Below, in pieces: positions 1,685 to 33,314 of a stretch of 64,000 bases of DNA. The DNA is from an uncultured Planctomycetota bacterium (GTDB lineage: Bacteria > Planctomycetota > UBA11346). The first letter of the stretch is position 1, and each line of letters starts with the position of its first letter. The notes beneath the pieces were generated by a model. That model ran no database searches. It saw only the letters and a list, made by a program, of their open reading frames with translations, and was not told the DNA's origin. Location of the stretch: NCBI GenBank assembly GCA_903902515.1, contig CAIUVD010000326.1, positions 2,350-66,349 of the forward strand, read 5' to 3'. The translations under genes and the position numbers were made by a program.

Positions 1685-1969
1685 GCGCCGTTCCCTCCTG
1701 TGGCCCTGCCGCAGGAGGGAACCATGCGCCCAGCGACCACCCCCCGATCCGGCATTTCATCTGCGCCTTCACCGACGACAGCGACCTGACGAAACCACAC
1801 CCATTCACCCAGTGGTTAAAATCCCGCATCGGGCTCCAACCATGCCCATCGACACGTGATCGCCCTGAGGGACCCATGGCGTAGAACGTCCTCGAATGAG
1901 ATCCGAGAACGCCAATGCTCACGCCGTCTCTCCAAGGCCTGAATGCCGATAGGGACCCGCCCTACCAGG

Positions 1970-2977: not shown

Positions 2978-2983
2978 GGGAAT

Positions 2984-3070
2984 TTTCGTCTAGCGTGTGG
3001 CGTCTAGCGTGTGGCGTCTGGAGTCTGGCGTCGAGGTCTCCATGACCCCAGACGCCAGACGCCAGACGGT
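2984..3070. repeat. tandem direct repeat (tctagcgtgtggcg x2) plus imperfect 17-nt inverted repeat (gtctggAgtctggcgtc / gacgccagacgccagac) between ilvD stop and pheS start
   Basis: Read directly; hairpin lies immediately 3' of ilvD and 5' of pheS on the minus strand. Confidence 0.5.
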
Positions 3071-4747
<1,677 letters not shown>

Positions 4748-4795
4748 GGGATGACCTCGGGAAGTTGGAAACAGGGTAGAAAAATCGTACCGCAC

Positions 4796-6193: not shown

Positions 6194-6879
6194 GGGTATT
6201 CCTGAGAATTTTTCGGGGTGTCGCCACCCCCGGGATCGCGGCCGTCCCGGCCGCTCGAAAAAGCACTAGACCAACGCCAATCATCAACCTCTTTACACAA
6301 GCCTGCCTCTACCGGATTCCGCTCAATATACGCAACCGCTTGGGCATAATGCTCGGCATCCCGAATATACCGATCCCAGTAATCAGGATGCCACACCGGA
6401 CCTTCCGTAGTACGCATCTTGTTGATCGCATGGGCCGTAAACGACTTCCAGGCCCCAACAACCGTCGTCATGGAGTAGCCAGGGACTTCCTGGAAGAGCA
6501 CATGGACGTGGTTGGGCATGATAACCCACGCCTGCAAAAGGTACCGGGTCCCATCAAAACAGCCCAGGGAATCTTGCATGATCTGCGCGCAGGTTGGGTC
6601 GCGTAACAAACAGGATCCATGGCCAGTATCGATCAACGCGTTCAGATGCTCGCGACGTTCGGAGGTCTGATCATCTTTTGGTAAGTCGGCCAGCATTCTG
6701 GCAATAGCATGGGCTGGGAGGGCATCGGCCAAATGCCACGTGACCATCTGGAGCATGCCGGCGGCATCGAAATGGGGGAGGTAGCCTCGGTGGTGCCAGC
6801 CTCGGTGATCGTTCGAGCGGCCGGGACGGCCGCGATCCCGGGACGAGACATCCGCCTCGGTCACAGCGTCCCGTCCCAC
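6190..6879 (-). mobile_element. REP-associated tyrosine transposase (RAYT; IS200/IS605-like TnpA, COG1943)
   Basis: WHHRGYLPHFD N-motif, HuH motif MPNHVHVL, catalytic Tyr region AVAYIERNPV; GTG start; both ends overlap the flanking genes (prfA stop, glmM start). Confidence 0.7.
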
Positions 6880-7952
6880 GTCGCCAGGAACTGGGCCTTC
6901 TCATGCTCGGCCATGGCCTTCAACAGTTCGTCACAACCACCGTCCATGTAACGGTCTAGGCTGTAGCCGGTCCAATTGATGCGGTGGTCGGTGATGCGGT
7001 TCTGGGGGAAGTTGTAGGTACGGATACGGTCGGAGCGTTCACCGGTGCCGACGGCATCCTTCCGCGTCGCCGCACGCTCGCGCGCCAAGCGTTCACGCTC
7101 GGCCTCGTAGAGGCGGGCCCGCAGCCACTTCATGGCCTTGTCCTTGTTGGCGCCTTGGCTGCGCTCCTCACTGCAGGCCACCACCACGCCCGTGGGGCGG
7201 TGGGTAATGCGGATCGCGGACTCGGTTTTGTTGACGTGCTGCCCGCCGGCGCCGCTGGCCTTGAAGGTGTCGATGTCGAGGTCGGCGGTGTTGATAGTTA
7301 CATCCGCCTCTTCGGCCTCGGGGAGGACGGCGACGGTGGCGGCGCTGGTGTGGACCCGGCCCTGAGCCTCGGTCTCGGGGACGCGCTGCACGCGGTGGCC
7401 GCCGTTTTCAAAGCGCAGCAATCCATAGGCCCCCAGGCCGTCCCGCGTGGTGCCCGTGACCTGGAAGGTGATTTCCTTGAAGCCGCCCTTTTCGCCCTCG
7501 TTGGCCGTCAGCAGGGTCAGGCGCAGGCCCTGGGGCACGCACCACTGGGTGTACAGACGCGCCAGATCACCGGCAAACAGGGCCGCCTCATCACCGCCGA
7601 TGCCCGCGCGGATTTCGAGGATGGCGTTGCGCTGGTGGGCATCGTCCGACGTCGCCAACCGTTCGCGGATCGACTCCAGGAGGGCCTCGCCCCGGGCAGT
7701 GGCTTCGGCAATTTCCTCCCGGGCGAGATCCCGCATCTCCGGGTCCTTCAGCAGGGCTTCGGCCCCGCTGCGTTCGGCCTCAGCGGCTTGCCAAGCGATG
7801 AACGGATCCACCACCCGCCCCAGACGCGCATGGTCACGGAGGATCTGTTGGTAGCGGGGCGTCCCGATGATCGCCGGATCCTCCATCTGGGCCGCCAACT
7901 GGCGCCAGCGGGCGTGGAGGCTCACCAGATGGGGGATCAGCGGGTCGGTCAC
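6861..7952 (-). CDS. prfA: peptide chain release factor 1
   Basis: GGQ motif ([19 protein letters not shown]) and PxT-type recognition region; full length. Confidence 0.95.
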
Positions 7953-10432
7953 GATGCGGAGGGCTCACCGCCATCGACCGGTTCCAGGCCCTCAGGCTTA
8001 TCGCTTTCCGGCGGGCACAGGGCCACGCCGGTCAGGACATCGCCCTTGTCCATGCTGATGATGGTCACGCCCTGGGCCGCGCGGCCGGTCGAGCGGATGG
8101 TATCGACGGCCGTCCGCACCACCTGGCCCTGGCGGGACATGAGCATGATCTCGTCCCCGGGGCGGACCGCGAGGCTGGCGACGACCGGGCCGTTGCGCTC
8201 GGAGGTATCGATGTTGGTCACGCCCTTACCACCACGGCTGATCAGGCGGTACTCGTCAAAGGGCGTGCGTTTGCCGAAGCCATTGGTGCAGATGGTCAGG
8301 ATTTCGGTGCCTTCGTCGCAGCGGACGAGACTGACGACCACGGCCCCCTCGGCGAGGTTGATGCCGGTGACGCCCTCGGTGGCTCGGCCCGTGGGCCGAA
8401 CATCGCCTTCCTCGAAGCGGACGGCGCTGCCATCGTCAGTAGCGATAAGGATCTGGTCCGTGCCGCTGGTCTCGACCACGCCGACCAGTTGGTCGCCCTC
8501 GGTCAGCTTAATGCCCTTGATGCCGCCGTTACGCGGATTGCCGTAGGCAGCGAGGGCGGTTTTCTTGACCGTGCCCTGACGGGTCGCCATCAACAGGAAG
8601 CGGTCTTCCGGGAAATCGCGCACCGGGATGGTGGCGGTGATGGCTTCGCCCTCGGGCAGTTCCAGGACATTGGCGAGGTGCTTGCCCCGGCTGGTGCGGC
8701 CCGATTCCGGGATGCGCCAGACCTTAAGCCAGTGGACCTGGCCGGTGCTGGTGAAGCACAGCAGGAACTGGTGGTTGGTGGCCGCGAACACCTGGGCCAC
8801 GAAATCCGTGTCGCCCTTGAGGTCACCACCGGAGACGCCCTTGCCGCCACGCCGTTGCAGGCGGAACGTCTCGACGGGCATGCGCTTGATGTAACCGCTC
8901 TTGGTGATCGTGACCACGCAGGGCGCGTCCTCGATCAGGTCTTCCATCTCGAAGTTACCGGCGGCAGCCACGATCTCGGAACGGCGTTCGTCGCCGAACT
9001 TCTCGATCAGCATCTCCAGGTCGGCCTTGATGATGGCGAACTGCCGTTCATCCCGGGCCAGGATGTCCATGAAATCGGCGATGGCGGCTTCGAGCTCCAG
9101 GCGCTCGGCATCAAGCTTGTCCCGCTCCAGGCCGGTCAGGCGGCGGAGCTGCATGTCGAGGATGGCCTGGGCCTGGCGGTCGCTGAACTGCCAGCGGGCC
9201 ATCAGGGCCTCCTTGGCGGCTTCCACCGACGGCGCGGCACGGATGGCCGCGATGATCGCGTCGATGACGTCGATGGCCTTCAGCAAGCCGTGAACGATGT
9301 GCAGGCGAGCCTCATCGCGGGCGAGCAGGAAGCGCGTCCGACGGATGATCACATCCTTGCGGTGCTCGATCCAGGCGCTGCACAGGCGGCGCAGGCCGAG
9401 GGTGCGGGGGCGGCCGCCATCCAGGGCGACGATGTTGATGGCGAAGTTGTACTGGAGGTTGGTGTGCTCCCACAATTGGTTCAGCACCAGTTCGGGATCC
9501 TCGCCCTTCTTCAACTCGATCACCAGGCGGATGCCATTGCCCACGGACCCGCCGTAGACCTTGGCCATGCCCTGGACCCGTTCCTGCTTGTCGGCCTCGA
9601 CAATAGACTCGGTGATCGTCTCCAGCTTGATGCCGTAGGGGATCTCGGTGACGACGATGGCCGGGCGGCCTTCGATTTCCTCGACGTGGGTCCGGGCCCG
9701 CATCACCACCCGGCCGCGGCCGGTCTCGTAGGCGTCGCGGACACCCATGGTGCCGCAGATGAAACCACCCGTGGGGAAGTCCGGGGCCCGCAGGAACTGC
9801 ATCAATTCCGGCACCGTCGCCTGGGGATTGGCGATCAGGTGGATCAGGGCCCGGCAGACCTCGGTGAGGTTGTGGGGCGGGATGTTGGTCGCCATGCCGA
9901 CGGCGATGCCAGAACTGCCATTGACCAGCAGGTTCGGCAGGCGCGACGGCAGGACCATCGGTTCCGTCAGGCGGCCGTCGAAATTGGGCCGGTGATCGAC
10001 GGTGTCGTACTGAATGTCGTCCAGCAGTTCGAGGGCCGGGGCCGCCATGCGGGCCTCGGTGTAACGATAGGCGGCCGCGCCGTCACCATCGATGGACCCG
10101 AAGTTGCCCTGGCCGTGAACCAGGGGGTAGCGCAGGCTGAAATCCTGAGCCATGCGGACCATCGCGTCGTACACGGCCGAGTCGCCGTGGGGATGGTAGT
10201 TACCCAGACAGTCACCGACCACCTTGGCCGACTTGAGGTGCTTGCGACCGGGCGTCAGGTTCAGGTCGCGGAGGGTCTGCAAAATGCGGCGATGCACCGG
10301 CTTGAGGCCATCGCGGACGTCCGGCAGGGCACGGTCCACCAGCACGCTCATGGCGTAGGTGAGGTAGCTCTCCTTCATCTCGGCTTCGATGAGGAGGTCT
10401 TTGGCAACAAGATTGGGCGGCAGGTCGGTCAT
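7949..10432 (-). CDS. gyrA: DNA gyrase subunit A
   Basis: N-terminus after trimming [51 protein letters not shown]; active-site AAMRYTE-like region (YRYTEARM); C-terminal beta-pinwheel repeats. Confidence 0.95.
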
Positions 10433-10513
10433 GGGGGTCCGCAGGGGAAGGCGGAGACGATACCGCAAGCCCGTGGGGGGCAAGGCGGTACCCCCCAAAA
10501 AACCGCCCGGATT

Positions 10514-11461
10514 TTAGCCCAGGCCGGCAGCCCGACGTAGGCGATCGTTAATGCCCAATCCAAGACCGATGGCGGGAACCAGGCGCGCAACGAGGTCCGT
10601 GGCACCCGAGGCATCCAGGCGGCGCAGGGACGCAAACAGCGTCCGGGCGGCCTCGGCCAAATCCCCGGACTGGCTCAGCAGTTCCGTGGGGCCACCGGCC
10701 GGCACGGGGCCACAGAGGGCCAGGCGACCAATGCGGGGATCCGTGGGCCAGGGCTCGTGCTCATCCAACAGCCGCAGGGGCGTGCGGGGGGCATAATGGC
10801 TGGCCAGGAGACCCGGGGCCGGCAGGGCAATGCTGGCGGCCCGGGCCTGGGCGTTGGCCACCGCCACCGGTTCGCCCAGGATCTCCTCCAAACGCTCGCG
10901 GGTCAGGCCGCCGGGGCGGAGAATCACCGGCTGGGGATCGACCAACAGCACGGTGCTTTCAATGCCGATGGCACAGGGACCGCCGTCGAGGATAGCCCCC
11001 ACCCGGTCGCCCAACTGGTCCCGCACATGGGCCGCGGTGGTGGGGCTGATGAATCCGAAGGGATTGGCGCTGGGGGCCGCCAGGGGCCGACCGGCCCGAC
11101 GGATCAGCTCCCGGGCCACGGGGTGATCCGGGCAGCGAACCCCGACGGTTTCCAGGCCACTGGTCACCACGTCAGGAATGGTGGCCCGGCGGCGCAGCAC
11201 CAGGGTCAAGGGGCCGGGCCAACAGGCGGCGGCCAGAAGGCGGGCCCGGGGCGTCGACTCGGCCACGGCCCAGGCCCCCTCGGGATCCGCCACATGGACG
11301 ATCAGGGGATCGAAGGTTGGCCGGCCCTTGGCGATGAAAATACCCAGGACCGCTTCGGCATTGGTGGCATCCGCCGCCAGGCCGTAGACGGTTTCCGTGG
11401 GCATGCCCACTAGGCCCCCGGCCCGCAGGATGGTCGCCGCCGTATCGAGGGGATCAGGCAT
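10514..11461 (-). CDS. tsaC: L-threonylcarbamoyladenylate synthase (Sua5/YrdC/TsaC family, with Sua5 C-terminal domain)
   Basis: YrdC fold motifs GGLVGMPTETVYGLAADA, KGRPTFDPLIVHV, SANPFG; start trimmed to MPDPLDTAATIL. Confidence 0.85.
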   Translation of the reverse strand: MPDPLDTAATILRAGGLVGMPTETVYGLAADATNAEAVLGIFIAKGRPTFDPLIVHVADPEGAWAVAESTPRARLLAAACWPGPLTLVLRRRATIPDVVTSGLETVGVRCPDHPVARELIRRAGRPLAAPSANPFGFISPTTAAHVRDQLGDRVGAILDGGPCAIGIESTVLLVDPQPVILRPGGLTRERLEEILGEPVAVANAQARAASIALPAPGLLASHYAPRTPLRLLDEHEPWPTDPRIGRLALCGPVPAGGPTELLSQSGDLAEAARTLFASLRRLDASGATDLVARLVPAIGLGLGINDRLRRAAGLG

Positions 11462-12308
11462 TGCCGGGAAACACGGCGATGGGCAAGCCGGCGGCGCGGA
11501 CCTGGGCGGCAATAGCCTCCAAGTTGGCAACGGGCAGGGCGGTGATGGTCGCCTCGGCCGTCGCCCGGGCCACGGTGTAGAGTTGGATCATGGCGATGTT
11601 GGCACCCTGGGCCCGGAGGGACGTCAAGCGTTCGATCCAGGCCGTGACCTCGGCCGGTGGCGGCACCTCGCCGTCGATCCGGGCCCACAGGGACTGAATC
11701 GTCAGTGGCCGACGCCGACCACAGATCAGAAGATTGTCGAGAATCCGCTGGAGGGAGACCTTGGAGCGGTCGATGCGCTGGAAGTAGTCTTCGGTACCCG
11801 CATCGAGCTTGGCCCACACCTCGCCCCGGTGCTGGTCGAGGATCGCCAAGCCGGCCTCGACCTCGGGCCGGTGCAGGAGGGTGGCGTTGGTGATGACCAC
11901 GATTTTGATCGGCAGCTCGTGCCAGGCGAGGACATCCACCATCAACTGGCAGGCTTCGGCAAAACGCGGGTAACTGGTGGGTTCACCATCCCCGCTGAAG
12001 GCCACATCGTTGACCCGGCGCAGGGCCGTTGGGGCAATGTCGAAGGGCGCCGTCTCCCAGATCCGGCCATCCTTGGCCAAGGGCAGGATGGCCCCCAATT
12101 CCGTACGGATGCCGTCAAGATCGACGGTCTTCACCGGGGCCGGCACCGTGCGGTCCACGCAGCAATACGCACAATCGAAGTTGCAGACCCCATCGGGATT
12201 GAGGTTGATGCCGATGGACAACCCCTGGGAACGCCGGGATACCACCGGATAGACAAAACGATTGTCGCGCCAGTGCCGGGAATGATCAGCGAATAGGGGA
12301 GTAAGCAT
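11454..12308 (-). CDS. radical SAM domain protein
   Basis: CxxxCxxC cluster CNFDCAYCC near the N-terminus; start trimmed to MLTPLFADH. Confidence 0.7.
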   Translation of the reverse strand: MLTPLFADHSRHWRDNRFVYPVVSRRSQGLSIGINLNPDGVCNFDCAYCCVDRTVPAPVKTVDLDGIRTELGAILPLAKDGRIWETAPFDIAPTALRRVNDVAFSGDGEPTSYPRFAEACQLMVDVLAWHELPIKIVVITNATLLHRPEVEAGLAILDQHRGEVWAKLDAGTEDYFQRIDRSKVSLQRILDNLLICGRRRPLTIQSLWARIDGEVPPPAEVTAWIERLTSLRAQGANIAMIQLYTVARATAEATITALPVANLEAIAAQVRAAGLPIAVFPGNA

Positions 12309-12455
12309 GGAGAGTCCGAGGAAAACCGAGAGGGAGTCGAGAGTGTTCAGGAGATGTTGAGTCACCAGGGGACCAAGCCTCCCTGCGGTTCCTCAACGTC
12401 TCCTCAACGCCTTCGACTCCCCCGGCTTCGAAATCGAGCAGGTGGTTGCGGCCCC

Positions 12456-13751
12456 TCAGTCGTCGAGCAGGAGGTCCTCGATCGCCATGTGGTTTTCTTC
12501 CAGGTGGGTCGCCCCCTCAATGGACAGGGGGGTCCAGGGGATGGCTTCCAGGCGGTTCTTGTTGATCGGCTCGCGAGTGTGCTCACACAGTCCGTAGGGA
12601 ATCGGACGGCCGACATCGATCTTGCGCAGGGCGCGATCGATCTGCCACAGGAGGTCCTTCTCCTGACCGGCCAAGGCCAGGCTCACGTCCTGGAGATCGG
12701 CATCGGAACCGCGCTCGGCGGCGTGGAGGGGCGTGGTGTGACCGTCTTCGGCCTCCATCGCGTCTTTTTCCAGGTCGGCGATGTCATCGGTCACCTGATA
12801 GCGCTGGGCCAGCAGGCGGGCACGCCACTTGGATAGTTCCTCGGCCGTGAAGGGCGAGGTGAAGCCCATGGAGCCGGTAATGACCGGCCGGGCACCCTCA
12901 ACCGCAACACTTTCAAAACGACCGGTAATGGGCTTCTTGGGGGCATCGCTCATGGCAGTCTCACGCTTGGAAAAGGTTTTGATGACGGCGCCAGGCTTGG
13001 GCGTCAGGGCGGAAGCCGCCTTGAATGACGGCGCCTTGACGGGCTTCGCCTCAACGGTTTTGGCGACGGGAATCGATTTGACAGGTGCGGGGGCCTTCGG
13101 GGCCGCCTTGACCGGCGACACCTTAGCGGGGGTGGGGGCGGGGGCGGGGGCTGAGGGAGCCTTCACCGGAGCAGGCTTGGCTGGGGCAGCGACTTTGGCA
13201 GGTGCAGCCTTGGCAACATGGGCAGGAGCGGGCTTGGCCGCCTTGGCGGGAGCTGCAGCCTTGGCGGGAGCCGCAGCCTTGGCGGGAGCTGCAGCCTTGG
13301 CGGGAGCTGCAGCCTTAGCCGGAACGGCCTTAGCGGGAGCCGCAGTCTTAGCCGGAACGGCCTTGGCGGGAGCCGCAGCCTTAGCCGGAACAGCCTCGGC
13401 GGGAGCCGCAGCCTTAGCCGGACCGGCCTTAGCGGGAGCCGCAGCCTTAGCCGGAGCCGCAGCCTTAGCCGGAACGGCCTTAGCGGGAGCCGCAGCCTTA
13501 GCCGGAACGGCCTTGGCAGGAGCCGCCGGTTTGGTCGGAGCACTCTTCGCCTCCTTCGCAGGAGGGGCCTTAGCTGGGACGGCCTTGATGACTTTGGCTG
13601 GGGAAGCCTTGACCTGGGCGGCTTTGGCCACCGGCTTGGGAATCACGGCCGCCTTCTTCACCGGAGCCGGCGATGTGGCAGCAGGCTTGGCGGGCTTCGC
13701 CGGGCTCGTCGAAGCCTTGGCGGTCGTAGGGCGGCTCTTGACGCTCGGCAT
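12456..13751 (-). CDS. DksA/TraR-family protein with long N-terminal Ala/Lys/Pro-repeat (histone H1-like) tail
   Basis: C-terminal ~120 aa with DksA-like coiled-coil plus C-terminal region (GLCEHTREPINKNRLEAIPWTPLSIE); ~300 aa of PAKAAA-type repeats upstream; start at MPSVKSRPT (13751) with upstream GAAGAA RBS; alternative internal start MSDAPKKPITG would give the DksA-like part alone. Confidence 0.6.
   Translation of the reverse strand: MPSVKSRPTTAKASTSPAKPAKPAATSPAPVKKAAVIPKPVAKAAQVKASPAKVIKAVPAKAPPAKEAKSAPTKPAAPAKAVPAKAAAPAKAVPAKAAAPAKAAAPAKAGPAKAAAPAEAVPAKAAAPAKAVPAKTAAPAKAVPAKAAAPAKAAAPAKAAAPAKAAAPAKAAKPAPAHVAKAAPAKVAAPAKPAPVKAPSAPAPAPTPAKVSPVKAAPKAPAPVKSIPVAKTVEAKPVKAPSFKAASALTPKPGAVIKTFSKRETAMSDAPKKPITGRFESVAVEGARPVITGSMGFTSPFTAEELSKWRARLLAQRYQVTDDIADLEKDAMEAEDGHTTPLHAAERGSDADLQDVSLALAGQEKDLLWQIDRALRKIDVGRPIPYGLCEHTREPINKNRLEAIPWTPLSIEGATHLEENHMAIEDLLLDD
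13160..13600. repeat. tandem ~18/36-nt coding repeats (gccttagcgggagccgcagccttagccggaacg...) encoding PAKAAA units
   Basis: Seen directly in DNA and in the translated ORF. Confidence 0.8.
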
Positions 13752-13919
13752 GGAAGAATCCTTTGAGGTTTCGTCGGGCAGGTCCGGGATCTGCGTTGGC
13801 TTAAAAGCGGCGGAAGGGTCTTCCGGTGGTTGAGATTGCAAGGGTATATCCGCGCAACTTTTCCTCCGTGAGGTCCAGCCTGGGTCAGCATACCTCAAAA
13901 TGACTGATTTCGGGGCTCG

Positions 13920-16253
13920 TCACGCCGAGGAAAGCTTCCCCGCCGCAAAAGCGAGCTGCAATTCCTTGAGACCGACCGGCCGGTCAAACTCAATTTGGAT
14001 GCTACGGCGATCCTCCGGGCCCCGACATCCGATGACCAGGCCCCGGCCAAAGGTGCTGTGGACCACCCGTTCACCGGGGCGGTAGGGGTCCGAGGCGAGG
14101 ATGATCGGGGCTTCGGGACCCGCTTTGGTGGCCCGACGACGGATCCGGCCAAGGCTATCTTCGATGAAGTCGTCGTCGTCCGGGTACTCCTCCTCGGGGG
14201 TCGCCACGGCGTCGGGCCGCTTCATCTGGGCGGCGGTGGTCAGGCGGCCTTTGGCGGCCTCAAGGGCCTTGGCCAACTTGGGATTGACGTGGCTGGTCGG
14301 CAGGGGGATGTCCCGGCGGCCAGTGGCATCGCGGGATTCAAAGCAATCCCCAGGAATTTCGCTGAGAAATTGACTAGGTTCGTTGTGGAAGGTCTGGCCG
14401 TAAAGCATCCGGCAACGGGCCCGGGACAGAAACAGTTCCTCCATGGCCCGGGTGATGCCGACGTACATCAGGCGGCGTTCCTCCTCCAGATCGCCGATCG
14501 CCCCATTGCGCATCAGGGGGAAGACCCCCTGTTCCACGCCCGTCACGAAGACGATGGGGAACTCCAGGCCCTTGGCGGCGTGGAGGGTCATGAGGGTCAC
14601 CCGGTCCTGGGCCGAGCCCACTTCCTCCCGGGCCTCGGCGTCGGTGTTGAGACTCACCAGCTCCAGGAAACCCGACAACCCGCCCTCGGGGTAGGTACTG
14701 TGGTACTGCTCGGCAGCGGTGATGACCTCGCGCATATTGGCGATGCGGTCGGCGGCTTCGCCGGGGTCCTCGGCTTTGCGGTAGTGGTCCTCCAGACCCG
14801 TCAACTCGACGATCCCGAGGACGCAGGCCGAGGGGTTCTGCTGGGGGAGTCGCAGGAGGGCTCGCCAGACTCGGGACAGTTCCCGCAGGGGCGCACCACT
14901 GCGGCCGACGGCGACCCGCTCCAGGAGATCGTCCTGGGCCAGGATTTCCGGTACCGTCACCAACTGGTCATCCGCCATTTGGTAGAGGTTTTCCAGGGCC
15001 TTGTCCCCCAAGCCGCGCTTGGGGACGTTGGCCACCCGGTCAAGACAGGTGCGGTCGGCGGGATTGATGAGGAGCTTCAGCCAGGCCAGGACGTGTTTGA
15101 CCTCCTCGCGGTCGTAGAAACGCAGGCCGCCGACGATCCGGTAGGGAATGCCGCGCCGTCGCAGGCCGTCTTCCAGGATACGGGACTGGGCGTTGGTCCG
15201 GTAAAAGACCGCGAAATCCGCCCACTTCCGCCCGGCCCGGGCCATGCTGTCGATCTTGGCCGCGACGCCGTAGGACTCGTCGAGTTCGTCATCCACCGCC
15301 ACCAGGGTAAGGGGCCGCCCCTCCGGGTTGTCGGTACGGATGGTTTTGTTCTCGCGCTGGGTGTTGTTCTGCACCACCCCCTGGGCGGCCCGCAGAATGA
15401 CCTTGGTCGAGCGGTAATTCTGTTCGAGGAGGACCTTCCGCACGCCCCGGTCCTGATAGTCCTTCTCGAAGTTGAGGATGTTGCTGATGTCGGCCCCGCG
15501 CCAACCGTAGATGGCCTGGTCCGGATCGCCGGTGGCGCAGATGTTGCCGTGCTCGCCGAGGAGGCGCAGCAGGCGATACTGAGCGGTATTCGTGTCCTGG
15601 TACTCGTCCACCAGGATGTAGGGAAAGCGTTCCTGCCACTTCTTCAGGAGGTCGGGATTGGCCTCGAACAGGCGCACCGGACGGACCAGGAGGTCGTCGA
15701 AATCGAGGTGGCAGCGTTCGTGGCACAGCCGGGCGTAGACGGCAGCGGCTTTCTGGGCCCAGACACTGACATCGTCGTTGGGCTCATGCTTCTCGATGTT
15801 GACCAATTGGTTCTTCCACTCGCTGATCTGGTGCATGACCCGCTTGAGTTCCACCACCTTGGGATCGAGTTTCAGTTCCTTGTAAACCTCCTTGAACAGT
15901 TTTTTCTGGTCATCGGGGTCAAGGATCGTGAAGGGGTGCTCCATCCCCAGGTGCTGGGTCTCCATCTTCAACAGGCGCAGGCCCGCCGAGTGGAAAGTGG
16001 TGATCCACGGCGTCTGCAGGTGGATGAGGCGGTGAACGCGCTCTTTCATCTCCCGCGCGGCCTTGTTGGTGAAGGTGATCGCGAGGATGCGGTCGCCCTT
16101 CAACTCCTTGACCTGAATCAGGTTGGCAATCCGGTGCGTAATAACGCGGGTCTTCCCGGATCCGGCACCGGCGACCACCAGCAGGGGCCCGTCGAGGTGG
16201 TCGATGGCCTCCCGCTGGGCGGGGTTCATACCGGAGTGAACGTCAATACGCAT
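13920..16253 (-). CDS. pcrA: ATP-dependent DNA helicase, UvrD/PcrA/Rep family
   Basis: Walker A AGAGSGKTRVITHRIANL, motifs ITFTNKAAREMKERV, DEYQDTN, GDPDQAIYGWRGA; start trimmed to MRIDVHSGMNPAQREA (or 16229). Confidence 0.9.
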   Translation of the reverse strand: MRIDVHSGMNPAQREAIDHLDGPLLVVAGAGSGKTRVITHRIANLIQVKELKGDRILAITFTNKAAREMKERVHRLIHLQTPWITTFHSAGLRLLKMETQHLGMEHPFTILDPDDQKKLFKEVYKELKLDPKVVELKRVMHQISEWKNQLVNIEKHEPNDDVSVWAQKAAAVYARLCHERCHLDFDDLLVRPVRLFEANPDLLKKWQERFPYILVDEYQDTNTAQYRLLRLLGEHGNICATGDPDQAIYGWRGADISNILNFEKDYQDRGVRKVLLEQNYRSTKVILRAAQGVVQNNTQRENKTIRTDNPEGRPLTLVAVDDELDESYGVAAKIDSMARAGRKWADFAVFYRTNAQSRILEDGLRRRGIPYRIVGGLRFYDREEVKHVLAWLKLLINPADRTCLDRVANVPKRGLGDKALENLYQMADDQLVTVPEILAQDDLLERVAVGRSGAPLRELSRVWRALLRLPQQNPSACVLGIVELTGLEDHYRKAEDPGEAADRIANMREVITAAEQYHSTYPEGGLSGFLELVSLNTDAEAREEVGSAQDRVTLMTLHAAKGLEFPIVFVTGVEQGVFPLMRNGAIGDLEEERRLMYVGITRAMEELFLSRARCRMLYGQTFHNEPSQFLSEIPGDCFESRDATGRRDIPLPTSHVNPKLAKALEAAKGRLTTAAQMKRPDAVATPEEEYPDDDDFIEDSLGRIRRRATKAGPEAPIILASDPYRPGERVVHSTFGRGLVIGCRGPEDRRSIQIEFDRPVGLKELQLAFAAGKLSSA

Positions 16254-16344
16254 GGGGCGGGGAGTGTGGAGTCCGCCACCACATGCAAACGCCCACGGGT
16301 CGCGAGGACCCGTGGGCGTCACATCGGCATGATGCCAGGATACC

Positions 16345-16557
16345 TTACTTGGCGGCAGGAGCTGGAGCGGCAGCCGGAGCCGGAGCGGCGGCAGGAGCCG
16401 GGCACTTCGTGCAGCTGCTACCAGCGGCCTTGGTCTCCGCACAGCAGCCGGACTTGGTGGCACAGGATTTCTCGCCACAGGAGGCGCGATCAGCGCCACA
16501 TCCGGCCACCAGGATTACGGAGGCGGCGAGGAAGAGGGAGGAGAGGATCTTGGACAT
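16345..16557 (-). CDS. small cysteine-rich lipoprotein (70 aa) with Pro/Ala-repeat tail
   Basis: Signal peptide plus lipobox LVAGC; 7 Cys in the ~50-aa mature part (SCGEKSCATKSGCCAETKAAGSSCTKCP); AAGGAAG RBS 6 nt upstream of ATG. Confidence 0.5.
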   Translation of the reverse strand: MSKILSSLFLAASVILVAGCGADRASCGEKSCATKSGCCAETKAAGSSCTKCPAPAAAPAPAAAPAPAAK

Positions 16558-16615
16558 GGGAACTTCCTTTCAGGGAGTGGAAATTGTACGACGCCCGGGG
16601 CGCCGTGTTGGGTGG

Positions 16616-17494
16616 TTATTCTTCGTCGATCTCGACACCAATGTGCTCCGCCCCGAGGTGGATATGGTCGATCAGCCGCACGCCATCAACGAACACCGCC
16701 GCCGCCAGCACGCAGCCCGGCACGGCCTGGGTCACTTCGGCAAAACCACTCAAACGAATCACATCGCAGTAATCCAGTTCAACACCTTCATGAACCAGCA
16801 GTTCATTGGCGACCTTTTCAATCAGGTCCATGGCATTGCGTTCGCCATCCATGTAGGCCTTGTTGGCCAGCTCAAGGCCCCGGGGCAAGCCCAGGGCTTT
16901 TTCACGGGACTCCTTGGAAAGACGGCGGTTACGGCTGGACATGGCCAAGCCATCGGGCTCGCGCACGGTGCGGCCAACCTGGATATCCACCGGCAGATTG
17001 AGGTCATTAACCATTTTGCTGATGATCAGGACTTGTTGGAAATCCTTTTCACCAAACACAGCGATATCCGGCAGGACGGCGCCAAACAACTTGGTGACCA
17101 CCGTCGCCACGCCCCGGAAGTGACCGGGACGAGCCACCGCACACAATTTGTCGGTCAGGGGGCCAACGATCTCGATGAAGGTGGCGTAGCCATCGGGGTA
17201 CATGACCTCGTTGGTCGGCAGGAAGACGGCATCAACGCCTTCCTTGGCCAGCAGGGCCAGATCGGCCTCCAGGGTCTTGGGGTAGTTGGCCAAGTCCTCG
17301 GGATTATCAAACTGGGTCGGATTGACGTAAATACTGACCACCACCCGGGTCGCCGACTCCTTGGCCTGACGGATCAAGGACAGGTGGCCGTCATGGAGGG
17401 CGCCCATGGTCGGCACGAAGCCGATGACGGCCCCCTCCCGCTGCTGGGTGCGGCTCCAGGCGCGCATGTCCGTGATGGTGCTGAACTGCTGCAT
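16616..17494 (-). CDS. panC: pantoate--beta-alanine ligase
   Basis: PTMGALHDGHLSLI HIGH-type motif, conserved middle region (VFGEKDFQQ, MSSRNRRL); start trimmed to MQQFSTI. Confidence 0.93.
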   Translation of the reverse strand: MQQFSTITDMRAWSRTQQREGAVIGFVPTMGALHDGHLSLIRQAKESATRVVVSIYVNPTQFDNPEDLANYPKTLEADLALLAKEGVDAVFLPTNEVMYPDGYATFIEIVGPLTDKLCAVARPGHFRGVATVVTKLFGAVLPDIAVFGEKDFQQVLIISKMVNDLNLPVDIQVGRTVREPDGLAMSSRNRRLSKESREKALGLPRGLELANKAYMDGERNAMDLIEKVANELLVHEGVELDYCDVIRLSGFAEVTQAVPGCVLAAAVFVDGVRLIDHIHLGAEHIGVEIDEE

Positions 17495-17544
17495 GAGTGC
17501 TCCAATCCTTGAATGGGGTCGGGGCATCCGTACCACCGTGGGCC

Positions 17545-18036
17545 ATGGCCTACCTGACCATCCGTATCAAGGGCGAGGAAGGGTACCGCCGCGTTCCCCT
17601 CGACAAGGACCGCATGGTCCTGGGTCGTTCCTCCGCCTGCGAACTCCTGATCCCCTCCACCGCCGTCTCCCGGGAGCACTGCGCCTTCGTCCGTGAGGGG
17701 GAGCAATGGCTGGTCGAGGACCTGGGCAGCTCCAACGGCACGCGCATCGGCGAGCGCAAGGTGGACGGCCGGGCACCCCTGGCTGAGAAGGATATGGTGA
17801 AGGCCGGCGTCGCCCGCTGCACCTTCCACCTTGGGCCCATCCCGAACGCGGACGAAGCCTCGGAACCCACCGAGGAAGCCGCCCCGACCCGGACTCGGGG
17901 CGCGGATGACCCACAGGATGCCATCCCCTGTTCGGACTGCGGCAAATGGATGTCCATCGCCCATCGCCTGCCGGGCGAACGCATGCCCTGCCCATTTTGT
18001 GACAAGCGCCAGACCGTCCCGACGTTGATCTCCTGA
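17545..18036 (+). CDS. FHA domain protein with C-terminal Cys4 zinc ribbon
   Basis: FHA core (MVLGRSSACELLIPSTAVSREHCAF...SSNGTRIG); C-terminal CSDCGKW...CPFCDK. Confidence 0.8.
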   Translation: MAYLTIRIKGEEGYRRVPLDKDRMVLGRSSACELLIPSTAVSREHCAFVREGEQWLVEDLGSSNGTRIGERKVDGRAPLAEKDMVKAGVARCTFHLGPIPNADEASEPTEEAAPTRTRGADDPQDAIPCSDCGKWMSIAHRLPGERMPCPFCDKRQTVPTLIS

Positions 18037-18046
18037 TCCTGAGATT

Positions 18047-19402
18047 GTGAACGGCCCCATGACTGACGTTCCCGCCCCCACCGCCCCCAAGCCCACGGCG
18101 CCCCCTCGGGCGATTCGGTGGTGGGGATTCCTGGTGATCTTCCTCCTCATCCTGGCCACGGCAGTCCTCGCCCCGTGGTGGCTGTCTTCCTTCCTTCGGG
18201 CCAAGATCGACACCGCCCTGGCCTCCCAGGGTTGGGAATTAGATCCCGCCCATCCCCTCTCCATCAGTATTTACGGAGCCCGGATTAGCGGCGAGGACCT
18301 GACTCTGCGGATGATCGCCGACCAGCGCGTCCTGATGCAGGCCAAACGTCTGTCCGCCGACGTGGCCGTCACGGAAAGCCTCCAGAAGCGCGACCTGGTG
18401 ATCGCCGAATTGGTGGCGGACGGCGTGGTCGGAAGCCTCCGGCGGGGCCCCGATGGCCGCCCGCCCCTGGTGGCGGAGGAGCCCGTTGCCCCCGGGGCCC
18501 CGCTCATCGACTGGAAAAAAGTCGACTGGAAGGCCAATTTCCAAAAGGGGATGGACCAGTACCAAGAATGGCAGGCCAAGCGTGAGGCCGACCTGAAGCT
18601 CCCCAAGGATCAGCCAGCCCCTCGCCCGGCCCCCGAAGCTGACATCGATTGGCCCCAAGCCGTCAAACACCAGCCCGCCCCCACCGTGGGTCGCCACATC
18701 CCGCGGGTGGTGGTCCGCAAACTGTCGATCACCGGCGGCAAGGTGCCGATGCCTGACGAAGGCCCCCTCGACATCGCCTCTTTCAGCCTCACGGGGTCTG
18801 ATGTGGCCCTCCGTCAAGACCAGGGCGAGGTCATGCTCCTGAAGGCGGAGATCACCACCGAAGGGGCCGGACCCATCACCCTGGATCTGACCCGGGAGCA
18901 AAGCGGCAACGGCCGCTTGAACTTCGCCGCCCCGACCATGCCCCTCCAGGCCCTGAGCTCACCCGCCATCGCTGGCGACAGCCTGGCCCCCTGGGGCCCG
19001 ACGGGCACCGCAGCCATCACCGGAGCCCAGACCTGGACCGGCTGGGCCCTCAACGGCACCGTCGAGGCCCAGGTCAGCGGCCTGGCCCTCCAACCGACTC
19101 CGGGAGCCCCCTCCGAGGCCAAAACCGCCGCCAAGGTGATTGCCGCCCTCAAGGGCAAACCGATCCGCTGGCCGGTGGTCATCGGGGGCACCCTGACGAG
19201 ACCGGAAATTGTCGACAGCGGCCTCAAGAAGGTGATGGAGGAAAACCAGGGGGTGTTGATCGAAGCCGCCAAGGAGGAAGCCAAAGACAAGGCCCTGGAA
19301 AAGGGCTCGCAGCTCATCGACAAGGAACTGAAAAAGCATCCCGAGGCTGAAAAAGCCAAGGACGCCGCCAAGGACGCCCTCAAGAACCTGTTGGGTCGCT
19401 GA
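18047..19402 (+). CDS. membrane-anchored hypothetical protein (possibly TIGR03545-like) with Lys/Glu-rich C-terminus
   Basis: N-terminal TM helix (WWGFLVIFLLILATAVLAPWWL); large extracytoplasmic body; immediately precedes a TIGR03546/DUF2062-like gene; family assignment from memory only. Confidence 0.45.
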   Translation: MNGPMTDVPAPTAPKPTAPPRAIRWWGFLVIFLLILATAVLAPWWLSSFLRAKIDTALASQGWELDPAHPLSISIYGARISGEDLTLRMIADQRVLMQAKRLSADVAVTESLQKRDLVIAELVADGVVGSLRRGPDGRPPLVAEEPVAPGAPLIDWKKVDWKANFQKGMDQYQEWQAKREADLKLPKDQPAPRPAPEADIDWPQAVKHQPAPTVGRHIPRVVVRKLSITGGKVPMPDEGPLDIASFSLTGSDVALRQDQGEVMLLKAEITTEGAGPITLDLTREQSGNGRLNFAAPTMPLQALSSPAIAGDSLAPWGPTGTAAITGAQTWTGWALNGTVEAQVSGLALQPTPGAPSEAKTAAKVIAALKGKPIRWPVVIGGTLTRPEIVDSGLKKVMEENQGVLIEAAKEEAKDKALEKGSQLIDKELKKHPEAEKAKDAAKDALKNLLGR

Positions 19403-19405
19403 ATC

Positions 19406-19939
19406 ATGTTCACCCTCTACAAACTGATCCGCAACCTGTTCAAGGCCCTGACCTCGGACGCGGCACCGTGGCAGATCTTCCTCGGCACCTTTTTCGGAAC
19501 CCTGCTTGGCTTCCTGCCGATCTTTCCCCTCTCCCAGGGCCCCTCACCCATCGCCCTGATCCTGATTGGCCTGGTTCTGGTCATCAACGTCCACCTCGGC
19601 TCGGTGTTCCTGTTCCTGGGTATCACCAAATTGCTGTCCCAGGTCCTCCACGGTCCGGCCCTGCTGGTCGGTGAGCAGTTCAGCGGCCTGGCCCAGACCT
19701 GCGCCGACATCCCATTCCTCCATTTGAGCCACTGGTCCCACACGGGGTACCTGGGCCTGACCCTGTTCGGCCTCGTCTGTGCGCCCTTGTTTGCCATCGT
19801 GATGTACCGCTTCTGCCTGTGGTTCCGCGTCACCTGGCGGGACAAACTGATGGAGAAGGCCCGCCTGCTGCGCGCTGGGTCGGTGGTCGACCACCCCTGG
19901 CTGGTACGGTTGGCCTGTTGGTTCTTTGGTATCGACTAA
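19406..19939 (+). CDS. DUF2062/TIGR03546-like small membrane protein
   Basis: PWQIFLGTFFGTLLGFLPIFP motif characteristic of DUF2062-related proteins; 4 predicted TM segments. Confidence 0.55.
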   Translation: MFTLYKLIRNLFKALTSDAAPWQIFLGTFFGTLLGFLPIFPLSQGPSPIALILIGLVLVINVHLGSVFLFLGITKLLSQVLHGPALLVGEQFSGLAQTCADIPFLHLSHWSHTGYLGLTLFGLVCAPLFAIVMYRFCLWFRVTWRDKLMEKARLLRAGSVVDHPWLVRLACWFFGID

Positions 19940-19941
19940 CC

Positions 19942-22902
19942 ATGCGCCTGCCCCTGACCACTTCCCTGCTGGCGTTAGCGACATGGGTCGGGGCCGCCGA
20001 AGGCCCCCTGCTGACCCGCCCGGGGAACGACCTGGCGGTCATCAACACGCCCCATCTGCGGGTGATCGTGCCGGCGGCTCAGGCTGAGGCCCTGGGGCCC
20101 CTGGCCCAACGGGCCGATACCCTCTACGCCCACCTCGCCCTGGAGGCGGGCTATACCATCACCCGACCCCTGACCCTGATCGTCAGTGATGATGCCGAGG
20201 ACCATAACGGCTTCTCGTCGGTCGTGCCTAACCGGATTGTCCAGGTGGAGTTGGCCTCGTCCCTGCCCCGCAGCGGGATTTTTACCGGCGTGGATGAAAC
20301 CGAGCGGACCCTGGTCCACGAGTTCGTCCATCATATCAGCAACGACCGTAATTACGGTTTTCGGGGCGTCCTCGAACGGATTTTCGGGCGCATCTACCCC
20401 GATGAGTTCCTGGGTCTCGGGGTGGCCTACCTCTCGGTCCCGGCCCATGTGACCATGCCATCCTTCTGGCACGAGGGCATCGCCCAGTGGGCCGAAACCG
20501 CCTATGCCGACCCGGCCTCACCCTGGGCCGGCCGGGGCCGGGATAGCCTGACCCACCTGGTGTGGCGCCTGGATGCCCAGGCCGGAGAGATCCCCTCGGC
20601 CGACGCCTGGCGGGCGACCTACCACCGCTGGCCCTACGGCAATCGCGTCTACCTCTACGGCCTGGCCTACACCCGTTACCTGGAAGCTGCCTACGGGAAG
20701 GCTCCCGGCCTGTGGTCCTTGATCGAGGAACAGGGCCGAGGTTGGGCCTTTGAGTTCGATGACGCTCCGCGCCGACTCACGGGTAAACCCCACGCCGTGA
20801 TGATCCAGGAAGCCCGGCAGGCCCTGTTAATCGAACAGCAGGGCCACCTGGCGACCTTGGGCTCTCGACCGCTCACCAGCCTGCAACGCCTGACCCCCCC
20901 AGAAACCCTGGTGGCCGCCCCGGCGTGGCTGCCCGGCGGCGGGCTGCTGGCGGCCTACCACGACATCTACGACATCCCCACCATGATCGTCCTGGAGCCC
21001 GATGGCACCCTGGTGGATCTGGATGTGATGGCCTGGGATCGTGGTGAAGCCCGCAGTGTGGGGGATGGGACGGCGGTGTGGGCGGAATCCCGGCACAGCA
21101 CCAATCCCTGGCGGCGAAGCCGCATCATGCTGCGCTATCCCGATGGCGCGATCCGCCACCTGGAAGGCGATCGCTGCCGTCAGCCCGACCTACGGCGGCA
21201 GGCCAACGGCCAGGTGGAGGTCACCGCCATTCGCCAGGGTCCCGCAGGTACCCAGGATCTGGTCGTGGGGGCCGTCGGCCAGGCCATCCTCGGTAAACTG
21301 CCGGTGGAATGGCGAACCGTTCCCAGCCAGGGCCGGGCGTGGAGCCCGGCTTTTCGCCCCGGATCCGAGGCGTTGTCCTGGGTCGAAACCGATGCCACGG
21401 GCAGCCGCCTGATCCTGGCCCCCCTCGCCGAGCCGACCAAACGTCAGGTGCTGGCCGAGGTCCGGGGACGCATCATCCATCCGGCGTGGAGCGCCGACGG
21501 CCAGCGGGTGTTCCTGTGCGCCGACCACACGGGGGTCCCCAACGCCTGGTATGTTGACGCCCAAGCCCCCGGAATCCTCAAGCCCGTGACCCACGTGGTG
21601 GGGGGCGTGGTGGCCTGCGTACCCTCCCCCGATGGCAAGGAGCTGGCGCTGGTCGCCTATGACCGCCAGGGCAATTTCCTGGCCCGGATCTCCAACGACC
21701 CCGCCCAATTCCCGACGGAAGTCCCGCGTATCGACCTCGCCTGGCCGGCACCGGTACCGGCGGTCGCCGTGCCCGGACCCGTTCCCCGACCCCTGACACC
21801 CCTGCCAGCCACCACCGGTACCGCACCCCCGGCCACGCCCTACCGGGGCCTCACGGAACTGGCCCCCCTGTTCTGGACCCCAACCACCCAGGTGACGCCG
21901 GTTGGCGGCCTGGGCGTGGTGGCGGTGGCTGCGGATCCTATCAATTCCCACCAGGTGATCGCCAGTCTCGGGGTCGGTGACCATGACCAGACCCTGGTCG
22001 GATCCGCCGCCTACCTGTGCGCCGCCTGGACCCTGGAAATTGGCGTCTTGGCGTGGCGGGATGAACGGACCTACGACAATCAACTCTACGATGGCGCCGG
22101 TAACGGCTACGACCTCGTCGACACCACGGAAAACGTCGAAATTCGGGCTGGTTATGGCCTCCTCGGGCGTCAGCGGCGTTTCCAGGCCTACCTCGCCCTG
22201 GGCCAGGCCCGGACCGAAGAAACCTCCGCCAGCCAGGACCGTCACCAGGGCCAGACCCTGTTTAACCGGCCCGCTTTTGCCGGCCGGGAAACCTACGTTG
22301 AGGGCACCCTGGCCTTCAGCAGCAACCTCCTGTTTCCCACCAGCTACACCCGCGAGGACGGCACCCTGGCGGCGGCCACGTGGCGCTCGAGTGGCTTTGG
22401 CGGGGACCTGGAAGGCCAGCGACTGGTCGCCCGGGCCGCCCACACCATCTCGGTCTGGCCCTCGGCCGGACATCAATTGGTGGTCGGCGGCCTGGTCGGC
22501 TGGACCAGCCAGGATGCAACCCGGACCCTCCAGGGTCGCTTCGCCGTGGGTCCGCCCAGCACCCTGGGCATTCCCCGGGGTTACCACGAAACCGCCGCCA
22601 TTGGCGATTACCTGCTGGGCTGGACCCTGGCCTACCGTTTGCCGGTATGGCGGCCCTTCCGGGGCCTAGGCACCACCCCCTTCGCCCTCCGCCAGGTGGT
22701 GGTCGAGGCTTTCCTTGATGGCGCCAAGGTGATGGCGGACTCCCTCGGTGATCGGGCCCCGTGGTACCGCTCGGCGGGTGGTGAACTGCATCTCGATACG
22801 GAAATCTGGGCCCTGCGCCTAGCCCCGGGCCTGGGGGTGGCCCGCCAACTGGACGGCCCCGAGGACACCGTGGCGTACCTGACCCTAGGATTCGCCTGGT
22901 GA
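19942..22902 (+). CDS. large outer-membrane protein: HExxH metalloprotease-like N-domain, PD40/TolB-like beta-propeller repeats, C-terminal beta-barrel
   Basis: Signal peptide MRLPLTTSLLALATWVGAAEG; LVHEFVHH zinc-binding-like motif; repeated AWSADGQRVF / PSPDGKELALVAY PD40-like units; C-terminus ...AYLTLGFAW (terminal aromatic typical of BAM substrates). Confidence 0.6.
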   Translation: MRLPLTTSLLALATWVGAAEGPLLTRPGNDLAVINTPHLRVIVPAAQAEALGPLAQRADTLYAHLALEAGYTITRPLTLIVSDDAEDHNGFSSVVPNRIVQVELASSLPRSGIFTGVDETERTLVHEFVHHISNDRNYGFRGVLERIFGRIYPDEFLGLGVAYLSVPAHVTMPSFWHEGIAQWAETAYADPASPWAGRGRDSLTHLVWRLDAQAGEIPSADAWRATYHRWPYGNRVYLYGLAYTRYLEAAYGKAPGLWSLIEEQGRGWAFEFDDAPRRLTGKPHAVMIQEARQALLIEQQGHLATLGSRPLTSLQRLTPPETLVAAPAWLPGGGLLAAYHDIYDIPTMIVLEPDGTLVDLDVMAWDRGEARSVGDGTAVWAESRHSTNPWRRSRIMLRYPDGAIRHLEGDRCRQPDLRRQANGQVEVTAIRQGPAGTQDLVVGAVGQAILGKLPVEWRTVPSQGRAWSPAFRPGSEALSWVETDATGSRLILAPLAEPTKRQVLAEVRGRIIHPAWSADGQRVFLCADHTGVPNAWYVDAQAPGILKPVTHVVGGVVACVPSPDGKELALVAYDRQGNFLARISNDPAQFPTEVPRIDLAWPAPVPAVAVPGPVPRPLTPLPATTGTAPPATPYRGLTELAPLFWTPTTQVTPVGGLGVVAVAADPINSHQVIASLGVGDHDQTLVGSAAYLCAAWTLEIGVLAWRDERTYDNQLYDGAGNGYDLVDTTENVEIRAGYGLLGRQRRFQAYLALGQARTEETSASQDRHQGQTLFNRPAFAGRETYVEGTLAFSSNLLFPTSYTREDGTLAAATWRSSGFGGDLEGQRLVARAAHTISVWPSAGHQLVVGGLVGWTSQDATRTLQGRFAVGPPSTLGIPRGYHETAAIGDYLLGWTLAYRLPVWRPFRGLGTTPFALRQVVVEAFLDGAKVMADSLGDRAPWYRSAGGELHLDTEIWALRLAPGLGVARQLDGPEDTVAYLTLGFAW

Positions 22903-23426
22903 ACACCCCCCTACGCCCCCAAAACCTCTGGTACCGCCGCTGGTGGCGGATCTCCGTGCACGCGGTGCGCGGCGTGACGCGGCTCCAAGACACCCCCCAT
23001 CGGATCGCCACCGGGGTCGCCTGCGGTCTCTTTTCCAGTGTGCTGCCGATTCTCGGCCAGACCGTGGTCGGCATCGTCCTCACCCGCCTCCTGCGGGGCA
23101 ACATCGTCGCCAGTCTGCCCTGGAGTTGGATCTCCAATCCCGTGACCTCCCCGCTCATTTTTTATGGGTGTTATCGCGTGGGAATCCTGCTTATCCCCGG
23201 CCAGGAAGTCCTGTCCTGGGTGCAAATGGAGGCCATGGTCACCAAATTCCAGGCCATGGGATTCCGTGAAGCCCTGGCCGAGGCTGCCGGGGTTTTTGCC
23301 GGGGCCGCCCTACCCCTGGGGCTGGGGAGTTTGCTGGTGGGAGCCATCGTCGGCGGCATCGGCTACGCCGGTGCCTGGGGGGTGGTCACCACCATCCAAC
23401 AGCGCCGAGCCCGCTCCACCGGGTGA
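22899..23426 (+). CDS. DUF2062 family membrane protein
   Basis: RIATGVACGLFSSVLPILGQTVVGIVL core; GTG start overlapping the preceding stop by 4 nt. Confidence 0.55.
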   Translation: MNTPLRPQNLWYRRWWRISVHAVRGVTRLQDTPHRIATGVACGLFSSVLPILGQTVVGIVLTRLLRGNIVASLPWSWISNPVTSPLIFYGCYRVGILLIPGQEVLSWVQMEAMVTKFQAMGFREALAEAAGVFAGAALPLGLGSLLVGAIVGGIGYAGAWGVVTTIQQRRARSTG

Positions 23427-23447
23427 AATCCTGGTGTAGACTGCTGC

Positions 23448-25067: not shown

Positions 25068-25101
25068 TCGTCGACGGATTGACGGCTTTCGCGGCGGACA
25101 G

Positions 25102-27849: not shown

Positions 27850-27855
27850 TGGGGG

Positions 27856-33306: not shown

Positions 33307-33314
33307 GGTGAGAC

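Follow-up and report, generated by a model that had tools for sequence, protein, structure and literature searches.

A DksA-like protein with a long polycationic, repeat-bearing tail in a Planctomycetota genome and its relatives

We analysed a gene in a 64,000-nucleotide (nt) stretch of DNA from an uncultured member of the Planctomycetota (lineage UBA11346; contig CAIUVD010000326.1 of assembly GCA_903902515.1, positions 2,350 to 66,349), which as a whole is called the window here and is numbered 1..64000. The gene lies on the minus strand (12456..13751) and encodes a protein of 431 amino acids (aa) in which a long, basic tail of low sequence complexity precedes a domain resembling DksA. Its open reading frame (ORF) starts with an ATG at 13751, continues for 431 codons and ends with the stop codon at 12456-12458, and an AAAGGA resembling a Shine-Dalgarno (SD) motif can be read from the sequence 7 nt 5′ of the ATG (13759..13764). 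Residues 1-297 (12861..13751) form the polycationic tail, which was delimited by composition and is predicted by AlphaFold to be disordered, and residues 298-431 (12459..12860) form the DksA-like core, which was recognized by Pfam, NCBIfam, PDB and fold matches. These and all further features described for the gene lie on the minus strand.

Several types of match agree on the identity of the core. The C-terminal 165 aa match the Pfam family zf-dskA_traR (PF01258) at a borderline 25.3 bits (cut-off 24.9), and NCBIfam models of the DksA/YteA type match with E-values of 1e-11 to 1e-7 (yteA 1e-11, dksA 7.6e-10). The best sequence match in the PDB is DksA of Chlamydia trachomatis (6PTG), with an E-value of 2.4e-11 when the single sequence is searched and of 3e-16 with the family profile, followed by DksA2, Agrobacterium DksA, TraR and Escherichia coli DksA (profile E-values of 2e-5 for 4IJJ and about 1e-3 for TraR and 1TJL). 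An AlphaFold model of the core, made with 70 homologues and having a mean predicted local distance difference test (pLDDT) value of 74, shows helices at positions 37-70 and 81-113 of the model and then short helices. In a Foldseek comparison with the PDB, the only significant matches were Pseudomonas aeruginosa DksA2 (4IJJ) and E. coli DksA (1TJL), with E-values of about 3e-4 and template modelling (TM) scores of 0.55-0.72. The AlphaFold secondary structure outlines a coiled-coil hairpin (12612..12845) made of a helix (residues 303-336), a tip loop (337-347, GHTTPLHAAER) and a second helix (348-380). From the family, PDB and fold matches we therefore conclude that the core, which is acidic (isoelectric point (pI) 4.6, net charge −14), truly belongs to the DksA/TraR fold family, as an earlier reading made from the sequence alone (the sequence-only reading) had proposed.

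Key residues of E. coli DksA were mapped onto the core via a family hidden Markov model, and 69 family members were compared. The earlier expectation of a zinc-less finger with a single cysteine was confirmed: C389 is the only cysteine of the 431-aa protein, and of the four zinc ligands of E. coli DksA only C114 is kept, with C117, C135 and C138 replaced by T, S and G. The C4 zinc finger is thus absent, and a zinc-free C1 variant (CxxT-x17-SxxG) is found as the remnant C389-x2-T392-x17-S410-x2-G413 (12513..12587). The C, S and G positions of this remnant are invariant in 69/69 family members, and position 117 is occupied by T in 52 members, by S in 10 and by N in 6. A zinc-free C1 motif has been described for Chlamydia DksA, where the last position is usually Ala (PMC9126822); it is Gly in the window protein. 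The conserved arginine R125 of E. coli DksA is kept. At site 2 for guanosine tetraphosphate (ppGpp), five residues of E. coli DksA (R91, K94, K98, R129 and K139) contact or support the ligand (bioRxiv 10.1101/188680). Their counterparts in the window protein are Q, D, Q, I and A, all of them non-basic, and the family consensus at these positions is E/D, D/E, Q, I and A. As all five basic residues are missing, the alignment suggests that synergy with ppGpp in the manner of E. coli is unlikely. The best-conserved stretch of the family is the tip segment DAMEAEDGHTTPxHxAERGSDADLQD, which is near-invariant in the 69 relatives and in which E346 and G348 are invariant (69/69). Such strong constraint on the tip would fit a continuing contact with RNA polymerase (RNAP).

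The tail is composed of 36% Ala, 16% Lys and 19% Pro (71% for the three together), has a pI of 11.0 and carries a net charge of +46. In the full-length AlphaFold model, block-mean pLDDT values of residues 1-300 range from 41 to 60, and the region is practically without secondary structure (two isolated one-residue bridges). Residues 78-167 are encoded by a near-perfect tandem array (13251..13520, 270 nt), which was delimited with Tandem Repeats Finder (TRF) and parsed unit by unit. By this parse, the array holds 16 units, of which five are identical in DNA. Ten are 18 nt long and encode PAKAAA in nine cases and PAKTAA in one, and the other six are 15 nt long and encode PAKAV (four), PAKAG (one) or PAEAV (one). 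The arrays that TRF detects overlap one another within 13240-13526, have periods of 18, 33, 66, 84, 99 and 117 nt and score 248-338; with scores of 275-338 at a threshold of 50, the repeats of the tail are far above chance expectation. Near-identical DNA repeats of 18 and 36 nt had been thought to encode almost the entire tail. The array is indeed present, but its higher-order period is 33 nt and not 36, being the sum of a PAKAV (15 nt) and a PAKAAA (18 nt) unit, and it makes up only about one-third of the tail, the remainder being degenerate sequence rich in A, K, P, V, S and T. Hallmarks of histone H1-like proteins that are present in the tail comprise the Lys/Ala/Pro tandem repeats of the 16-unit array, the high pI and the predicted disorder.

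A free Ala/Pro/Lys-repeat protein of 99 aa (MAKAKTTAPKAAAPKAAAPK...) is encoded elsewhere in the window (34150..34449, plus strand), by DNA with tandem repeats of a 15-nt period. Its gene has a GGAGA 6 nt 5′ of the ATG as well as a hairpin and a T-run 3′ of the stop codon, and the protein matches the HC2 and 'histone H1-like DNA-binding protein' models weakly, under their cut-offs. The same genome therefore encodes a free H1-like protein besides the tailed DksA.

Translation of the tail was assessed by comparative evidence, and ORF openness and the G+C content at third codon positions (GC3) were set aside as coding evidence. The antisense frames are largely open too, because the Lys/Ala/Pro-rich, GC-rich repeats leave them open, and GC3 is 0.66 in the tail compared with 0.81 in the core and 0.80-0.84 in the neighbouring genes, a reduction that results from the amplification of one GCT-rich unit. 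Both features would suit translation from the internal Met267 codon (12951..12953; MSDAPKK) or nearby, which the sequence-only reading had raised as an alternative start that would uncouple the two domains; the repeats would then lie in a leader that is not translated, and the gene would make an ordinary DksA of about 165 aa. One public call of the same gene is likewise short: the identical protein in a scaffold of the European Nucleotide Archive (ENA) was called as 236 aa (P0001), with a GVG-type alternative start. However, this call is a truncation artefact, since a run of 100 Ns interrupts the array in its scaffold. No SD-like motif was found upstream of the internal ATG at 12953, and Met267 is not conserved in position among relatives. 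At the distal ATG, by contrast, a GGA-containing SD-like motif lies 4-9 nt upstream in all 12 loci compared (the window and 11 relatives, the latter with GAGGA, AGGAG or GAAGG), and the sense frame is the sole frame open through the entire tail in the same 12/12 loci. The far N-terminus is also conserved (M-[SP]-K..RP), reading MPSVKSRP in the window and MSKPTDRP, MPKTKERE or MAKAKE in relatives; neither such a peptide nor an SD-like motif occurs at Met267. Moreover, tails stay lysine-rich, with a pI >9.5, despite complete sequence turnover.

Tail length varies between close relatives in a way that bears on the same question. In three groups of close metagenomic relatives (L035-L039; L040-L042; L059 and L061-L063), with identities of 97.6-100% in two of them and 88.5-92.4% in L040-L042, indels of 6-54 nt set the tails apart, all of them multiples of three in length; among strains of 97.6-99.7% identity the indels measure 6-36 nt. 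These changes are gains or losses of short units, for example ADK/SDK triplet repeats, and bear out in relatives the length polymorphism that had been predicted for the window tract. As evidence of translation the in-frame indels are supportive but not independent proof, because each repeat unit already has a length divisible by three. Taken as a whole, we regard the comparison of sequences as decisive for a tail translated from the distal ATG, and thus for the fusion of an H1-like basic tail and a DksA domain in one translated ORF that had first been proposed. A start at Met267 in place of the distal ATG is highly improbable; a minor short isoform from an internal start might still accompany the full-length product.

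The number of repeat units at 13251..13520 rests on one assembly, and the true copy number needs long-read confirmation. In a second assembly of the same population (ENA scaffold BUCK21-1...scaffold_953, L001), a 100-N gap is located inside the array (5611..5710, at about window position 13454), and the array of this scaffold shows two nonsynonymous differences from the window in its repeat units (V/G and K/E). A contig of 92% identity from a Joint Genome Institute (JGI) metagenome (L032) breaks at the tail. Because repeat tracts break short-read assemblies, tail lengths in public protein sets are under-reported.

In the window, the gene is flanked by UvrD upstream and by a radical-SAM gene, Sua5, GyrA and RF1 downstream. 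The neighbours are mostly unshared among relatives, so the context yields no functional clue. An ORF at 6190..6879 (minus strand), which adjoins prfA, gyrA and Sua5, is assigned a Y1 (tyrosine) transposase domain in the Pfam table of the matching ENA scaffold. A 334-aa Ala/Gly/Leu-rich ORF antisense to the tail (12829..13833, plus strand) was considered and rejected as a by-product of composition, the matching frame being broken in several relatives (L002, L008 and L010). Scans for promoters and terminators and searches for Rfam families and tRNAs around the tailed gene found nothing, and the entire 64-kb window (1..64000) is free of tRNA genes and of Rfam matches that reach the gathering threshold. 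A search of the window for a second DksA-like gene was likewise negative.

The fusion had been regarded as unusual, a view that the distribution of the architecture does not support. Of 29 related genome loci at species level, 28 have a basic in-frame tail of 51-335 aa (pI 9.4-11.5) ahead of the DksA core, and the closest relatives, with core identities of 69-73%, have tails of 257-335 aa. Among 1.84 billion cluster representatives, a profile search with the core recovered 3,699 relatives, 774 of them at E-values up to 1e-10. Tails were counted in the 141 best representatives (50% identity clusters) with a measurable N-terminus: at least 50 residues stand ahead of the core in 128/141, at least 100 in 111/141 and at least 200 in 66/141. 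Nearly all of the tails in the first class (125/128) have a pI >9.5, and their median Lys fraction is 0.20. With 128 of 141 representatives tailed, members of this DksA clade in Planctomycetota thus normally carry the fusion. In a second homology search, a further tier of profile matches (about 100 bits) consisted of Phycisphaerae, whose homologues are annotated as 'TraR/DksA family transcriptional regulator' and once as 'histone H1-like repetitive region-containing protein'. Several of these have precomputed Pfam matches to both HC2 and zf-dskA_traR, and the Phycisphaerae relative P0309 passes HC2 at 48.2 bits (cut-off 40). Some of the related loci derive from bins labelled Kuenenia or Brocadiaceae. 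Homologues of the Phycisphaerae type (e.g., P0137, P0143, P0150 and P0152) share a conserved linker motif, (K)KSGRKGITVV ... RPLIPSGP, between tail and core that is absent from the window protein.

Tail-less forms occur as well. The metagenome-assembled genome La1_maxbin2.009 encodes both a tailed copy (L012; 4001..4396, 261 aa) and a tail-less paralogue of 145 aa (L030; 4001..4399), the latter with 51% identity to the window core. At the position of E. coli D74, tail-less representatives have Asp (P0131 and P0159) or Glu (P0132). These sequences offer hints that tailed and tail-less DksA forms may divide labour. A literature search found no paper on tailed DksA in Planctomycetota.

A published precedent for the fusion exists outside this phylum. 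DdbA of Streptomyces coelicolor (SCO2075), named 'Dks-like DNA-binding protein', combines an H1-like and a DksA-like part (Aldridge et al., Nucleic Acids Research 2013; PMC3643593), and the planctomycete clade is hence a further case and not a new kind of protein. The N-terminal H1-like part of DdbA binds and condenses DNA in electrophoretic mobility shift assays and atomic force microscopy, whereas the C-terminal DksA-like half alone does not; overexpression of DdbA suppresses relA phenotypes, an effect credited to the DksA-like half, and orthologues were reported solely from streptomycetes (PMC3643593). As in DdbA, a basic, Lys/Ala-rich N-terminus of low complexity is placed directly ahead of a DksA-like domain in one polypeptide, and as among DdbA orthologues the length of this tail is variable. 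The two proteins differ in the tail itself, which in DdbA comprises 93 aa with a pI of 10.5 and (S/T)(A/T)AKK pentapeptides compared with 297 aa and PAKAAA/PAKAV units in the window protein, and in the core, where DdbA keeps a C4 zinc finger and Asp at D71/D74 while the window protein has one Cys and T and E at these positions. Only 3 of 266 collected relatives have at least four Cys in the DksA domain, so that the clade is of the C1/C2 type. Since DdbA is of the C4 type, and since Chlamydia DksA and the planctomycete paralogue are tail-less, the planctomycete and Streptomyces fusions probably arose independently, as judged from the published description of DdbA.

Other known proteins resemble one or the other half. 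DksA of C. trachomatis (CT407, 6PTG) belongs to the same Planctomycetes-Verrucomicrobia-Chlamydiae (PVC) superphylum, is also zinc-free and of the C1 type (PMC9126822), and shares with the window protein G at the A76 position, Q at K98 and I at R129. It differs in being without a basic tail (132-residue chain, tag included), in having Asp at the D74 position where the window family has an invariant Glu, and in keeping K at the R91 and K94 positions, which are Q and D in the window protein. With E. coli DksA, P. aeruginosa DksA2 and TraR (1TJL, 4IJJ and 6N57), the core shares the predicted coiled-coil hairpin, the small globular domain and the C-terminal helix as well as the conserved first Cys and R125. 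Unlike these proteins, it lacks the zinc site, the DxxDxA tip and the basic ppGpp site-2 residues, its tip loop contains three inserted residues, and it follows the 297-aa N-terminal extension. The tail is similar to AlgP and PhaF of Pseudomonas, Hc1/Hc2 of Chlamydia and BpH1 of Bordetella in its short K/A/P tandem repeats, predicted disorder, high positive charge and readily mutating tracts. However, in those proteins the basic region is C-terminal or constitutes the whole protein, none is joined to a DksA fold, and the tail described here is less lysine-dense. AlgP, with KPAA repeats and a net charge of +55, binds DNA and polyphosphate (polyP) granules, and its tract mutates readily (PMC9239181). 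CarD of Anaeromyxobacter is another transcription factor with an H1-like domain, in this case C-terminal (PMC2919716).

Building on the observed domain identity, fold and residue substitutions, and on the tail composition, conserved architecture and in-frame length variation, we favour, with slightly better than even confidence, a two-part factor of the DdbA type in which the core occupies the RNAP secondary channel and the tail binds DNA, probably independently of ppGpp. By homology with DksA, the coiled-coil hairpin would insert into the secondary channel and bring the invariant tip with its acidic residue (E346, G348) near the active site. The disordered polycationic tail would bind DNA without sequence specificity, by analogy with the Lys/Ala/Pro tails of DdbA, AlgP, Hc1/Hc2 and histone H1. 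It would thereby hold the factor on the nucleoid and may bridge RNAP to adjacent DNA, coupling transcription to chromatin compaction. Given its site-2 substitutions, the factor probably acts without ppGpp, like TraR and possibly Chlamydia DksA. The tail evolves fast by in-frame gain and loss of short repeat units, with charge and composition kept.

A number of observations weigh against this interpretation, in which RNAP and DNA binding by the tailed clade are inferred from homology and composition. The window tail gave no match at E-values up to 10 to HC2 (Pfam PF07382) or to H1-like models (NCBIfam NF038052 and NF038053), profiles that capture mainly composition, and it contains one lysine per 5-6 residues compared with one per 4 in AlgP. 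The C-terminal domain of histone H1 is also denser in lysine. The gene neighbourhood is not conserved, the radical-SAM gene alone being in common, and this only with the two closest relatives. As to the core, the full-length protein reaches 23.5 bits and falls just below the Pfam zf-dskA_traR cut-off, and the curated NCBIfam cut-offs are missed widely (TIGR02420, 39.2 vs. 115.5 bits), as are further equivalog cut-offs (NF033459, 32.2 vs. 105 bits; PRK10778, 19.5 vs. 289 bits). The tip residues D71, D74 and A76 of E. coli correspond to T340, E346 and G348, with a 3-residue insertion, and do not form the DxxDxA motif; in E. coli, DksA function is abolished by substitutions at D74 and A76. Chlamydia DksA, the nearest solved relative, fails to complement E. 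coli dksA (PMC9126822). With these tip residues, this failed complementation and five non-basic residues at site 2, the suggestion that the fusion tethers stringent-response control to the chromosome was not sustained. The same low equivalog scores, altered tip, lost site-2 residues and failed complementation would suit a core that has drifted from secondary-channel regulation, leaving a protein that is mainly nucleoid-associated and whose DksA fold is vestigial or repurposed. Yet no part of the protein is more conserved across the 69 relatives than the coiled-coil tip, it holds an acidic residue at the D74 position and a small one at A76, as expected for contact with the RNAP active-site region, and R125 is kept. 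A related tip function is therefore possible as judged from the alignment, and we consider such drift improbable, more so than the two alternatives for the tail.

For the tail, electrostatics cannot separate DNA from polyP or RNA, so the partner might instead be another polyanion (polyP granules as for AlgP, RNA or ribosomes), which would localize the DksA-like domain to a starvation-related compartment. AlgP, to which the window tail is close in charge and repeat chemistry, localizes to polyP granules, the spacing of which depends on it (PMC9239181). However, the AlgP and PhaF tails bind DNA too, their proposed role being to tether granules to the nucleoid, the sole tested H1-like plus DksA fusion, DdbA, binds and condenses DNA (PMC3643593), and nothing in the window ties the gene to ppk, ppx or ribosome genes; we therefore see a target other than DNA as unlikely. 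A similarly low probability is given to a tail that acts within the molecule, by masking the acidic core, as an entropic spacer or as a degradation or solubility tag, with release by proteolysis or salt changes. The opposite charges of the two halves (+46 and −14) are in line with this idea, as are the poor conservation of tail sequence and length (51-335 aa), of which composition alone is kept, and the tail-less paralogue (L030) in at least one related genome. On the other hand, +46 is far more than the neutralization of −14 requires, similarly composed tails of DdbA, AlgP and Hc2 bind DNA, and a high pI that is strongly conserved in hundreds of lineages is explained at least as well by an external polyanion partner.

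If the DdbA-type reading is correct, the tailed DksA proteins probably represent a recurrent, convergent solution that couples transcription to nucleoid structure. The combination of a secondary-channel factor with a chromatin tail, once described as specific to the genus Streptomyces, is now seen to be standard in a large clade of DksA proteins from an unrelated phylum. More tentatively, and with clearly less confidence than in the two-part factor itself, several deep lineages of Planctomycetota (that of the window, the Brocadiaceae/Kuenenia-labelled bins and the Phycisphaerae) may have gained an H1-like DksA tail independently of DdbA; the product would be an abundant nucleoid protein that couples RNAP to compacted chromatin without ppGpp, with its tail length tuned by repeat slippage. 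Condensed nucleoids are a known trait of Planctomycetota and of the PVC bacteria related to them, and the isolation of DNA-condensing factors is named as an important step in a review on the PVC group (PMC3177640). The tailed DksA family is a testable candidate for a role in this condensation and, should the wider scenario hold true, would supply a concrete candidate for the nucleoid-condensing factors that have long been sought in PVC bacteria.

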